From Candidatus Thorarchaeota archaeon (GTDB lineage Archaea > Asgardarchaeota > Thorarchaeia > Thorarchaeales > Thorarchaeaceae): DNA of 64,000 nt. Position 1 is the stretch's first letter, and each line of letters begins with the position of its first letter. The notes beneath the pieces are model-generated. The model made no database searches, had not been told where the DNA came from, and was given only the letters and a program-made list of their open reading frames with translations. This document shows, piece by piece, positions 40,667 through 43,995 of the stretch. Both the position numbers and the translations under genes were made by a program. Location of the stretch: NCBI GenBank assembly GCA_963726195.1, contig CAVSBO010000005.1:96001-160000 (forward strand), in the 5' to 3' direction.

Positions 40667-41335
40667 ATGACTCCCTCCGACCATGCCTCAATCCTTGTGG
40701 TAGTGGCACATCCTGATGATGAATGCATTGGCGCAGGTGGCACAATCAGGAAGCATGTTGACCAAGGTTTCGAGACCGATGTCTTGTGTTTGACGGGCAA
40801 TGAAGTGCGAAACGCGGAGCTCAAGGCCGCATGCGAGGTACTTGGAGTTAGGGAGGTGTACACGAACGAGCGTGACGACTTTGCCATTGACTGGCCCCTT
40901 GAGCAGGAGATAGTGTCAGCCATACTGAAGTCTCGGCCGTCAGTCATCATCACACATTCTGTGAAGGACTACAACCGAAATCACGTTCGATGCTCGAAGC
41001 TTGTCGCCGATGCCGTCGAATGGGCGTCACACGTGACAATGTACGAGGATGCTGTTCGCGTTGACAGGGTCTATTGCATGGAGATCAACAGCCTGCATTC
41101 ACGACCTAACGTTCTCGTTGATGTGTCCAATTCCTTCGATGCGGCCATGGATGCCCTTCGAAAGCACAGCTCGCAGCTTGAGAAGGCTGATGGCTTCTAC
41201 TCACGATTCTATGATGCAAGAACCCGTCTGCGTGGAGTTCAGGCTGCGTGCGATAGAGCTGAAGCCTTTACGGTCTCGTTTCCTTTTCACGCAGGACCGT
41301 TCTATCGAAGAAATGCGGTCGAGAGTCTGATCTAG
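40667..41335 (+). CDS. bshB: PIG-L/LmbE family deacetylase, BshB-like
   Basis: VVAHPDDECIGAGG, HSSQ, RGVQA...AEAF; divergent from bshA. Confidence 0.75.
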   Translation: MTPSDHASILVVVAHPDDECIGAGGTIRKHVDQGFETDVLCLTGNEVRNAELKAACEVLGVREVYTNERDDFAIDWPLEQEIVSAILKSRPSVIITHSVKDYNRNHVRCSKLVADAVEWASHVTMYEDAVRVDRVYCMEINSLHSRPNVLVDVSNSFDAAMDALRKHSSQLEKADGFYSRFYDARTRLRGVQAACDRAEAFTVSFPFHAGPFYRRNAVESLI

Positions 41336-41347
41336 AAGCTTGAACTA

Positions 41348-41771
41348 CTACCCGGGACCTTCAGCCCCACCTGTGTCTCCCTTCTTCCTTCTTGCAGAAA
41401 GAAGTGACTTCAGTTCTCCCATGAGGTTGCCTCCTGCACCAGCAGGTGCGGCAGCGGGCAGGCGGTGGCGTTGCGGCTTTGGCAGCTGCGCCCTTTGACG
41501 CAGGAGCTGGTCCACCTTGAGCGGGAGCCGATGGACCCGCAGTCTTGGCGCTTGAAATCTTACTGTCGAGTTGGCTGATACGTGCTTCGAGTCCTCCGAC
41601 CTTGGTCTGAAGCTCTGAGACCGTGGTCTGCAGTTCACCGATCACACCAACCAATTTCATCGTGACGGTAGAGACGACTTCTCCGAGCTCACGGATCTTC
41701 TCATCATTGGGGTCCTTTAGTGCCCACTCGAAGTCTTCCATGATTCCCAATTCGTCTTTGTCGTCAGCCAT
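41348..41771 (-). CDS. ~140-aa protein: coiled coil, Pro/Ala linker, WH2/VASP-FAB-like tail; 1-bp insertion near 41457
   Basis: ORFs 41361-41840 and 41348-41638 join to give ...ATPPPAAAAPAGAGGNLMGELKSLLSARRKKG. Confidence 0.7.
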
Positions 41772-41888
41772 GGCACAGACCACTTCTTCAAGTTTCAATG
41801 ACTTGGTTTTGCTATAAACATTACCTGCATATTGAATCATCTACTTGGTACGTGAAGCAAATCGATACCAAAAGGTCCTAGGTTCCGT

Positions 41889-43301
41889 CTAGCGAGTTCG
41901 TTGAATGGCTTCCGCGACGACAGCCTTTGCCCGCTTCATGGTTTCTTCCGCTTGGCGGGGCGTGCGTGCTTCACAAGTGATCCTTACCACGGGCTCCGTG
42001 CCTGAGGGCCTAACTAGTACCCAACCTTCCTTGAGTGATATGCCTAGGCCATCCACCGTCACGACGTCAACAGTATCTCTGAATGCTTCGGGCAGTCTTT
42101 TCGTTACGGCTTGCATCACAGCCGGCTTCAATTCGTCTTGGCACTGCAGCTTCGTTTTCAGAAGAGGATACAGAGGTATTTCCCGAATGAGGTTTCCGAA
42201 CCCCTGTCCTGTGTGTGCCATGAGCTCGAGAATCTTGCATGCAGCAAGGAATGGCTCTGGTGCCAAATGAAACTCGGGAAGAATGAAGACACCACATGCC
42301 TCACCACCCATGGCCGCCTTGGTCTCATTCACCTTCATGGATACTTGTATGTCTCCTACCGGAGTTCTGATTGTGCGTCCCCCCGCCTTTTCCACCGTTT
42401 CATCCAAGACCCGTGAACTGTCGACTGTTGTGACTATCGTCTTGCTGCTCGATGTCTTCAAGGTCTCTCTCGCCAAGAGTGCTATTGTTCTGTCTCCTCT
42501 CACAACTTCACCGGTCTCCGTCACGAAAACAACTCTGTCAGAATCGCCGTCATGAGCTATGCCGAGATTCGCCCCTGTCTCTGGAACCATCCGTGCGAGG
42601 TCTTTCAGCGTCTCTTCATCTGGTTCGGAGATTCGCCCTGGAAAGAACCCATCCGGCTGTCCATTGATTGTGATAACCTTGCATCCCAGTTCCCTCATGA
42701 GGTATGGTGTCATTGCGCATGCGGCGCCGTTGCCCGGATCGACAACCACTTTGTAGGCCCTTTTTCTGATTAGGTCCCCGTCGCATCTCGACATCACTGC
42801 TTCCATGTGTTCCGTTACTGCACTCTCGAGGGTTTCTTCGGCACCCAGCTGATTCCATGCCGCGACCTTGAACTCGCGAGAATCATAGAGATTCTCAACT
42901 CTTTCTTCTTCTTCCGGAGTGTAGCCCATGCTGTTTCGAGACCAAAACTTGACGCCCGTATACTCTGGGGGATTGTGAGACGCAGTGACCGTAACTCCAG
43001 CATCGTAGCCGTGACTCATTGCGACGAAAGCAAGCGTGGGAGTTGGCAACATGCCCGCCCTGACCACGTTTGTTCCAGTGGAAAGCAAACCAGCCGAGAA
43101 AGCATCAGCCACCATGCGTCCAGTCGTTCGCACGTCGTGCGCCAAGGCAACCGTCCCTCCATTGAGATACGTGCCAAGCGACTTGCCGAGATTCAGTGCC
43201 ATCGCGAGGTCAAACTCCGATCCGTAGACCTTCCTGACTCCGGTTGTGCCGAACAGCTTTCCCAAACTGCTTTCCCGAATCGTTCCCAAGCGACACTGCA
43301 A
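41889..43301 (-). CDS. glmM: Phosphoglucosamine mutase / phosphohexomutase
   Basis: LFGTTGVR, TASHNP, HDGDSDR, VRPSGTEP; exact start and substrate uncertain. Confidence 0.85.
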   Translation of the reverse strand: MQCRLGTIRESSLGKLFGTTGVRKVYGSEFDLAMALNLGKSLGTYLNGGTVALAHDVRTTGRMVADAFSAGLLSTGTNVVRAGMLPTPTLAFVAMSHGYDAGVTVTASHNPPEYTGVKFWSRNSMGYTPEEEERVENLYDSREFKVAAWNQLGAEETLESAVTEHMEAVMSRCDGDLIRKRAYKVVVDPGNGAACAMTPYLMRELGCKVITINGQPDGFFPGRISEPDEETLKDLARMVPETGANLGIAHDGDSDRVVFVTETGEVVRGDRTIALLARETLKTSSSKTIVTTVDSSRVLDETVEKAGGRTIRTPVGDIQVSMKVNETKAAMGGEACGVFILPEFHLAPEPFLAACKILELMAHTGQGFGNLIREIPLYPLLKTKLQCQDELKPAVMQAVTKRLPEAFRDTVDVVTVDGLGISLKEGWVLVRPSGTEPVVRITCEARTPRQAEETMKRAKAVVAEAIQRTR

Positions 43302-43434
43302 AAAAACCTGCCTGCGGCTTCTTGGTGATGAATTTCGCCTGTGTTGCGCGAAAGCTTATTAGAAGCTAAGAATCCTAAGCGGTTTGAAAAAATCTCCGCG
43401 GCGTTCTGCATATCGTGAATCGGGGTTATCCGTG

Positions 43435-43995
43435 ATGAGTAGCACTTATGACCGACTGTACAAGATTGTGGTGCTCGGGGAGGGGGCAGTGGGCAAAACT
43501 GCGATTGTGACCCGATTCTCGCACGGCTTCTTCAGAACTGACTACAAGACGACGATTGGTTCTCAGTTTGCGGTGAAGAACTTAGACATCAAGACCAACG
43601 AGAACAGAAGACTGACTGTCAAGCTGCAGATCTGGGATGTGGCCGGCCAGTCGCGTTTTGCGATTCTTCGACCAATGTACTACCGAGGTGCAAGTGGCGG
43701 AGTTCTCGTATATGATGTGACTAGGCGTCGCACGTTCATCGTATTGCACGAGTGGCTCGATGAACTCCATAAAGCGATTAACAAGACTATACCTCTCGTA
43801 CTTGTCGCAAACAAGACCGATCTCACAGATCGCGTTGTTACGCCGGCTGAGGGCAGGGAATTTGCAGACAAGCATAGCCTGCCTTACGTAGAGTCCTCTG
43901 CAAAGACTGGCGAAGGTGTTATCGACATATTCGAACAGCTTGCGAAGACTCTTGCTGAGGAACACGAGCACGAAGACGAGTCCAATACATCATAA
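43435..43995 (+). CDS. Rab-like small GTPase
   Basis: GEGAVGKT, TTIG, WDVAGQ, NKTD, SAK; RabF-like KLQIW, YYRGA, LVYDVT; no C-terminal Cys. Confidence 0.93.
   Translation: MSSTYDRLYKIVVLGEGAVGKTAIVTRFSHGFFRTDYKTTIGSQFAVKNLDIKTNENRRLTVKLQIWDVAGQSRFAILRPMYYRGASGGVLVYDVTRRRTFIVLHEWLDELHKAINKTIPLVLVANKTDLTDRVVTPAEGREFADKHSLPYVESSAKTGEGVIDIFEQLAKTLAEEHEHEDESNTS

Follow-up and report, generated by a model that had tools for sequence, protein, structure and literature searches.

The window analysed here is a stretch of 64,000 nucleotides from a Candidatus Thorarchaeota archaeon (assembly GCA_963726195.1, contig CAVSBO010000005.1, positions 96,001 to 160,000), and positions are counted from its first letter. 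Our subject is a small minus-strand gene at 41348-41771, which encodes one protein of 140 amino acids once a single base is dropped from a run of G residues at 41456-41458 (CCC on the gene strand). As deposited, the first minus-strand frame opens at the ATG 41769-41771 with MADDKDELGIMEDFEWALKDP, passes through a heptad-rich stretch and then an Ala/Pro/Gly stretch and is plausible up to ...AATPPP, after which it turns into Cys/Arg/Trp-rich junk and ends at 41361. The adjacent frame carries ...PAAAPAGAGGNLMGELKSLLSARRKKGDTGGAEGPG and closes with a TAG stop at 41348-41350. A preliminary description, made from the letters of the window alone, had proposed that a one-base frameshift hides a protein of about 140 amino acids here, and had read this protein as a candidate Ena/VASP-like actin regulator. 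We examine both proposals and present the protein, which we regard as a candidate actin regulator on the strength of its sequence, as the Thorarchaeota form of a family of wider distribution.

The gene and its reading frame

The frameshift almost certainly arose when a homopolymer was misassembled, because the extra base is missing from contigs of public runs and from other assemblies, and the orthologs fetched are all intact. When the region 41200-41900 was compared with contigs from four public metagenome runs (two studies, of peat and of freshwater sediment), base 41456 was absent from all four. These contigs are 99-100% identical to the window, and two of the four differ from it at 41456 alone. 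Two independent assemblies contain the intact protein (P0105 and P0123), which reads PPPAAAAPAGAGGNLMGELK across the frameshift site (PPPAAAAPAG), and the 19 orthologs that were fetched are all single intact open reading frames of 130-150 amino acids with the same tail. The proposed frameshift is thus borne out by runs, assemblies and orthologs together. It follows that the true product is the protein of 140 amino acids counted from the Met at 41771, and that the deposited annotation, a frameshifted product of 159 amino acids (P0124, from a 232,645-base contig of the same genome), is wrong at its C-terminus. That the strain carries a genuine frameshift and the gene is a recent pseudogene is very improbable: the extra base is indeed present in the deposited assembly and in its annotation, but it is missing from all four runs, two of them otherwise identical to the window, and it lies in a homopolymer. 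Programmed frameshifting was also considered and is ruled out, the orthologs and the other assemblies being in frame.

The start codon at 41769-41771 (minus strand) is supported by three features. Orthologs start in the same way (M-A/P/G/S-D...), and the frame upstream is closed or not conserved in most of them. A BRE/TATA element (transcription factor B recognition element and TATA box) of the conserved archaeal type, aatgTTTATAgc, occupies 41811-41822 on the same strand with its TATA at -47 from the start codon, and 19 of 20 orthologous Thorarchaeota loci have TTTATA, flanked by the same bases, between -38 and -54 relative to the ATG. Finally, a G-rich stretch resembling a Shine-Dalgarno sequence (GTGG) lies just 5′ of the ATG. 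By these signals the gene has its own promoter.

Protein architecture and family distribution

The protein is made up of four parts: a conserved N-terminal motif, a long predicted helix (coiled coil), a disordered stretch of about 38 residues, and a tail helix that hardly varies and leads into a basic cluster. This layout rests on conservation and on an AlphaFold2 run on a family alignment of 120 sequences, for which P0105 numbering minus 23 gives the numbering of the 140-residue protein. The model consists of one long helix plus disorder (predicted template modelling score, pTM, 0.26).

The N-terminal motif covers E7-V33 (…IMEDFEWALKDPNDEKIRELGEVV; 41673-41753, minus strand, as are all parts of the gene). 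Its I, F, W, A, L, D, P, E, R and G are invariant in the 19 orthologs and mostly so in the 120 sequences, and in the model it forms a short helix, broken at DP, after which the long helix begins. The latter, at about residues 21-77 (41541-41711), corresponds to residues 44-100 of P0105 and is modelled with a predicted local distance difference test (pLDDT) of 86-91. Searches of PDB sequences with the family profile return generic coiled coils, mostly trimeric ones (reovirus sigma-1, haemagglutinin HA2, Lpp, phage gp26 and trimeric adhesins), a similarity which hints at a parallel oligomer and nothing more. The linker, residues 78-115 (41426-41540), is rich in Ala, Pro, Gly and Ser, includes a single PPP and is modelled without secondary structure at pLDDT 38-51; its length and composition are conserved and its sequence is variable. 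It is followed by the tail helix L116-K130 (LMGELKSLLSARRKK; 41381-41425; pLDDT about 80), a hydrophobic N-terminal half (L116, M117, L120, L123 and L124) leading into the basic residues R127-K130. A short Gly/acidic end, G131-G140, together with the TAG stop at 41348-41350, completes the frame (41348-41380), and similar short acidic or Gly ends occur in orthologs. The protein carries no signal peptide and is predicted to be cytoplasmic, with flexible arms. The preliminary description had quoted the coiled-coil string and the PPP, both of which are present, and its layout of an oligomerising helix, a Pro/Ala linker and a basic helix agrees with the model and with conservation.

The tail is more than chance would give, because M117, E119, L120, K121, L124, A126 and R127 are invariant in the 120 family sequences and a loose version of the tail pattern turns up just once when the 2.9-Mb genome is translated in six frames.

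Named relatives of the protein are nearly all from Candidatus Thorarchaeota and are annotated as hypothetical proteins without Pfam domains. A protein search finds a match in all 24 genomes of the same family, and a profile search an ortholog in 57 of 59 Thorarchaeota genomes. The Thorarchaeota profile also matches 193 of 251 Asgard genomes; in several other Asgard families the matches span almost the entire profile, at E 1e-9 to 1e-16, and the proteins of 23 loci fetched from such families have the same four parts. The intact P0105 can be aligned from end to end with 119 family sequences. With the family profile, the window gene gives one match for each of its two halves (E 5.7e-38 and 5.3e-7), and the tail profile also recovers it, at E 1.4e-11. 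This tail-only profile, of 30 positions, identifies 180 of the 251 Asgard genomes, mostly with one match each in open reading frames of 130-240 amino acids, and adds families missed by the full profile (f3, 4/4; f13, 3/3). The tail, whose translation and conservation across Asgard genomes and orthologs had been proposed as a check, is therefore both translated and strongly conserved, its E-L-K being at least 90% conserved across Asgard families. The family is not specific to Thorarchaeota, and the window protein is its Thorarchaeota form.

The forms found in different lineages differ mainly in their ends and in the linker. Proteins of the Loki-like families (f9 and f24) begin MAEEF...APLEEKL..FGDIVEKIM, include poly-Pro runs such as GAPPPPPGAPPPPPG and end P-x-S-L-R-G-A-I-M-G-E-L-K-E-L-F-S-K-R-K-K; other Asgard families end ...ARMQLQSELKELFSRLRR, ...RAQMQGELQSFLARRR or ...SLKAQMNMELKEAFARIKK, and in Hodarchaeales members the linker is of the Pro/Ser/Thr kind and about 105 residues long. 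Poly-Pro is lineage-specific: Thorarchaeota proteins have at most one run of three or more Pro, whereas runs of at least five occur in nine of ten Loki-like proteins, and Loki-like members place one or two such runs (PPPPP or longer) immediately before the tail. The genome G240 (family f28) contains three paralogs, two of them in tandem (L082:695-1572(+) and L083:1495-1980(-)).

To delimit the family further, one genome per species from 185,579 prokaryotic species was scanned with a degenerate DNA pattern for the tail, which gave at least 80 loci, 80 of them listed. Among the matches listed, 77 are true family members by profile, and 32 of these have runs of PPPPP or longer; the other three, bacterial or Thermococci loci, hold no family member. 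The contigs carrying the 77 members bear the labels Thor-, Prometh-, Hod- or Hermodarchaeota or 'uncultured archaeon', with the exception of one short contig from a metagenome-assembled genome labelled Candidatus Bathyarchaeota. This 7.5-kb contig carries a true Loki-like member with PPPPP runs (L149:1953-2417(+)) and may be a mis-binned Asgard contig. Among the genomes scanned and the matches listed, the family thus appears to occur almost only in Asgard archaea, and homologs are not common in actin-lacking archaea; the opposite result would, according to the preliminary description, have refuted its proposal. A search of the ESM Atlas gave nothing beyond unnamed Asgard clusters and weak helical look-alikes, and no published description of the family was found in the literature searched.

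Members of the family are also found as parts of larger proteins. An exhaustive search with the family profile gave 759 matches at E <=1e-3, many of which are unrelated coiled coils. It revealed, in other Asgard lineages, that the whole module can stand at the C-terminus of proteins of 399-464 amino acids whose N-terminal part is an Arf/Gtr1-RagA-like GTPase by Pfam (P0177, P0214, P0224, P0241 and P0253; L085:1489-2715(-) and L086:343-1593(+)). These begin with a helical N-terminal region, followed by the GTPase, the coiled coil, the Pro-linker and the ELK-tail; they retain the N-terminal motif of the family and occur in genomes which also hold a stand-alone gene, two of them in f9 genomes. 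A word-index search had found no longer fused relatives and no eukaryote-like or longer forms, and in five Hodarchaeales genomes no GTPase bears the tail. Fusions to gelsolin were not seen: each Thorarchaeota genome has one tail match, in a small open reading frame, and the gelsolin open reading frames of Thorarchaeota are ordinary one- and two-domain forms, save for one weak match in a frame of 340 amino acids. The tail profile weakly matched two further proteins, with per-genome E-values of about 1e-3 to 7e-3. One is a vWA-type protein of about 519 amino acids which ends with a tail-like motif (L087:84-1640(+); …SIQGALMNELKELK…), the other a protein of about 526 amino acids which starts with one (L084:1-1578(-); …SLISELKEVLARRRK…).

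Possible partners of the tail helix and genomic context

The four-part layout suggests how the protein might work, and from it we infer an oligomeric state, a partner and an activity. The N-terminal motif and the long helix (residues ~7-77) would form an oligomeric, probably parallel coiled-coil hub, from which each chain would extend a floppy arm of about 38 residues carrying a docking helix of 15 residues. The docking helix may be a short linear motif for a very conserved partner, most likely actin, and might lie on the filament or in a hydrophobic groove, as do the F-actin-binding segment of VASP, the helices of WH2 proteins and thymosins, and arcadin-2. The oligomer could then bundle or tether filaments, and Loki-like relatives with PPPPP runs could in addition bring profilin-actin to them.

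That the partner is a specific conserved protein fits the pattern of conservation, since Asgard families keep the tail almost unchanged and let the linker diverge. The leading candidate is actin, if a tentative one that we rate as somewhat less than probable, because of the register of the motif, the poly-Pro immediately upstream of it in many lineages, the restriction of the family to Asgard archaea and the precedent of arcadin-2. In human VASP, the GAB motif occupies residues 223-239, the site that binds F-actin (FAB) residues 259-278 and the tetramerisation coil residues 343-380 (PMC10340426), and the FAB sequence which the preliminary description gave is correct according to the same source. 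Like the FAB, the tail is hydrophobic at positions 1, 2, 5, 8 and 9, then has four basic residues (RRRK), and a Gly run precedes the helix. Aligned by eye on their LM dipeptides, AGGNLMGELKSLLSARRKKG of the window protein and VASP 259-278 are identical at 9 of 20 positions; orthologs ending GGGGLMGELKSLLAARRRKT (L003/L014) reach 12 of 20, also by eye, and the Loki-like core IMGELKELFSKRKK follows the register of the FAB without gaps. This likeness received no statistical support when the tail profile was compared with the PDB at E <=10.

An actin partner would also address a gap in the literature. The actin regulators of Asgard archaea named in the literature searched are profilins, gelsolins and an ARPC4-like protein only (PMC7444086, PMC9433394, PMC13716822), machineries for polyproline- and profilin-actin-based assembly are described as still to be discovered there (PMC9433394), and formins and Ena/VASP are treated as eukaryote-only (PMC13716822). 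The source genome encodes an actin (445 bits; contig 15: 106925-108028), a two-domain gelsolin about 8 kb from it (contig 15: 116250-116768) and a one-domain gelsolin on the contig of the window, about 90 kb from the gene (contig 5: 227833-228033). The Pfam profilin model was silent in this genome and in all control genomes, so that the search is uninformative on profilin.

Several observations weigh against actin. No match to a Pfam WH2, VASP or actin-binder model was obtained at E <=10 in family members (ten of them for PF02205), or at E <=1 for PF02205 with the window tail, and the tail-only profile gave no matches in the PDB at E <=10. Unlike WH2 motifs, the tail lacks the canonical LKKT/V and has a longer helix and RRRK/KRKK instead. 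The tail-only profile does not find it in the Asgard families f5 (0/26), f20 (0/7), f17 and f27. Thorarchaeota members, the window protein included, have at most one PPP or PPPP, so that the caution first attached to the short Pro run of this gene was justified, and Loki profilins have been reported not to bind VASP polyproline. There are no actin, profilin or gelsolin neighbours in 42 loci from any lineage examined, the neighbours being a bshB-like gene and glmM in Thorarchaeota and housekeeping genes or unknowns in other lineages. Lastly, the family is not among the proteins named in a co-immunoprecipitation with Lokiactin of L. ossiferum, which lists profilin, five gelsolins, BAR proteins and a 38.1-kDa ARF GTPase (GNAMCCOK_04696). 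The experiment neither supports nor contradicts actin binding by the family. Its top match, GNAMCCOK_04250 (20.61 kDa), has the same mass as a family member in Hodarchaeales; we rejected this identity as a coincidence because the organism differs and because a peptide coverage of 91.7% would be impossible for a protein whose linker runs to about 120 residues and contains neither Lys nor Arg.

The neighbourhood of the gene is well conserved in its own right. In all 19 Thorarchaeota loci the gene lies between a convergent PIG-L deacetylase gene and an upstream phosphohexosamine mutase gene on the same strand, near a GT4 glycosyltransferase gene. By NCBIfam models, the last two are archaeal GlmM (518 bits) and BshA (377 bits), both over the cut-off; the deacetylase is BshB1-like (87 bits, under the cut-off), and a BshC-like protein scores 53 bits, far under it. 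The window segment 37911-43301 thus holds a bacillithiol-type gene set adjoining the gene, then the archaeal phosphoglucosamine mutase. BshA, the deacetylase and GlmM keep the same order round the gene in all 19 loci, and the BshC-like gene falls outside these loci. In the f9/f24 loci examined (L058-L064), what comes before the gene on the same strand is mostly a conserved Lys/Glu-rich coiled-coil protein of about 210 amino acids (nine loci), and what comes after it a conserved protein of about 589 amino acids (six loci); neither of these has a Pfam match.

A small GTPase is part of the same conserved block. It is a Rab/Ras-like protein at 43384-43995 (Pfam Ras, E 1.4e-49), and in at least 25 of 30 Thorarchaeota genomes an ortholog, 76-90% identical to it, lies at a distance of 1.7-4.8 kb from the gene. 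The proximity to a Rab-like GTPase, to which the preliminary description had drawn attention, therefore holds as a conserved feature; the two genes are not adjacent, however, glmM lying between them, and the gene is unlinked to actin genes. This neighbour, together with several Asgard proteins in which the whole module is attached C-terminally to an Arf/Gtr1-RagA-like GTPase, raises the possibility that an adaptor with the same hub, arm and docking helix binds another conserved partner, such as a component of small-GTPase or membrane-trafficking systems or another cytoskeletal or remodelling machine. The lack of linkage to actin genes and of any WH2 or VASP profile match would agree with such a partner. 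We regard this possibility as real but somewhat doubtful: no motif match points to any alternative, the tail fits MIT-interacting motifs worse than FAB or WH2 by eye, poly-Pro beside a WH2-like helix is a hallmark of actin assembly factors, and GTPase fusion would be compatible with actin regulation.

The composition of the tail suggests a different role, in which its hydrophobic-then-basic sequence would sit on acidic lipids while the coiled coil and the N-terminal motif hold something else at the membrane. The net charge of +3 to +4, the five hydrophobic residues, the cytoplasmic location without signal peptide, the flexible arms and the GTPase fusions, which suggest membrane-associated signalling, are all in line with a tether of this kind. 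Its helical hydrophobic moment is not: in 16-residue tail cores of Thorarchaeota and Loki-like proteins it is 0.07-0.28, no higher than in shuffled sequences, because the basic residues come after the hydrophobic ones along the chain. Moreover, lipid-binding helices conserve character rather than residue identity, and the invariance across Asgard families of specific residues including an acidic one, the Glu of E-L-K, would be unusual for such a helix. The low moment and the invariant residues favour a conserved protein partner over a simple lipid-binding helix, and membrane tethering is in our estimate quite unlikely.

If actin is indeed the partner, the family would be relevant to how the eukaryotic ancestor came by its dynamic cytoskeleton and wired it to small GTPases. 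Asgard archaea have eukaryote-like actin, profilins and gelsolins, and a near-universal small protein combining a coil, Pro and a VASP/WH2-like helix is a candidate for the gap in their assembly machinery. The full version of this idea is speculative and, in our view, unlikely as it stands: the family would be the missing Asgard factor for the assembly and organisation of actin filaments, with a multivalent coiled-coil hub, poly-Pro arms recruiting profilin-actin, a WH2/FAB-like helix on actin and, in some lineages, direct control by an Arf/Rag-like GTPase. Were it true, the poly-Pro and WH2 logic of eukaryotic VASP/WASP-type regulators would predate eukaryotes. A protein of 140 amino acids or a peptide of 15 residues makes the candidate cheap to test, and even without actin binding the family would constitute an undescribed, strongly conserved Asgard adaptor.

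Comparison with known actin regulators

The protein resembles Ena/VASP proteins in having a putatively oligomerising coiled coil, a flexible Pro-containing region and a short helix with a basic cluster, and the (G/A)PPPPP runs of Loki-like relatives resemble the proline-rich region of VASP. In other respects the two differ. The protein has only 140 amino acids, with neither EVH1 nor GAB and with a single PPP in the Thorarchaeota form; its coil is N-terminal in the AlphaFold2 model, whereas the tetramerisation coil of VASP is C-terminal. EVH1 is missing from the window protein and 29 family members in that they have no Pfam domain of any kind, VASP_tetra has no Pfam match, and searches of the window protein against Pfam and NCBIfam give sub-threshold coiled-coil noise only. 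A second WH2-like motif of the GAB type (KLRK) is absent from the alignment, where the tail is the sole conserved short motif after the coil. The profilin-type (G/A/L)PPPPP repeats, absent in the window protein, are present in Loki-like relatives. The Ena/VASP identity first put forward for the protein therefore fails, as regards both its domains and the WH2 and VASP matches sought in Pfam and the PDB.

True homology of the module with the EVH2 region of Ena/VASP or with WH2, rather than convergence, is accordingly hard to credit, even though the tail has the same register as the FAB of VASP and poly-Pro lies directly upstream in many members. The likeness spans only 15-20 residues with low-complexity flanks, the order of domains differs, EVH1 and GAB are missing, and no Pfam or PDB profile match and no longer or eukaryote-like form was found.

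The WH2 and beta-thymosin motifs (WASP, WAVE, WIP and thymosin beta-4; PF02205) provide a comparison of smaller scale. They too consist of a short helix, often right after poly-Pro, in which positions i, i+1 and i+4 are hydrophobic and basic residues follow. The R-G-A-I-M-x-E-L-K at the start of the Loki-like tail resembles the R-G-A-L-L-x-x-I-R with which WASP-type WH2 begins, and also the M-A-E-I-E-K-F of thymosin beta-4. A VCA region of the WASP family, with its conserved Trp for Arp2/3, is absent, the proteins ending 5-12 residues after the basic cluster with no central or acidic-Trp element.

Subunits of WASP-family complexes such as BRICK1/HSPC300 and CCDC53/WASHC3 share with the family a short N-terminal coiled coil, which in CCDC53 is followed by a low-complexity region. 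PF10152 (CCDC53, WASH complex) is the best Pfam match in the family (E 8.6e-5, 23.5 bits against a cut-off of 24.6), but it is confined to three of 29 members (L021, L065 and L073, of the f7 lineage), with none for Thorarchaeota proteins, and BRICK1 (3p8c_E) appears among the PDB matches of the family profile at E 0.019. Both scores are within coiled-coil noise. Other subunits of these complexes were not found, no search having been made for them.

Because it lacks EVH1, GAB, a C-terminal coil, LKKT/V and any profile match, the protein is not a member of the Ena/VASP, WH2 or VCA-type families and at most works like them. A parallel in layout is found within the archaea. Arcadin-2 of Pyrobaculum (PDB 5LY3) has a core, an unstructured linker and a conserved C-terminal helix of 17 amino acids which by itself docks into crenactin's hydrophobic groove (31 nM; PMC5173319). 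The two proteins are not known to be related in sequence, and no arcadin-2 chain was found among the best 60 PDB matches of each full-length profile search, and none with the tail profile. The arcadin-2 gene lies next to crenactin in the arcade cluster, whereas the gene described here is not beside actin, which is on another contig; the helix of arcadin-2 relies on a Trp, and its activity is depolymerisation or sequestration. What the two proteins have in common is their construction, in which an unstructured linker of non-conserved sequence joins a structured core to a small conserved helix at the C-terminus.

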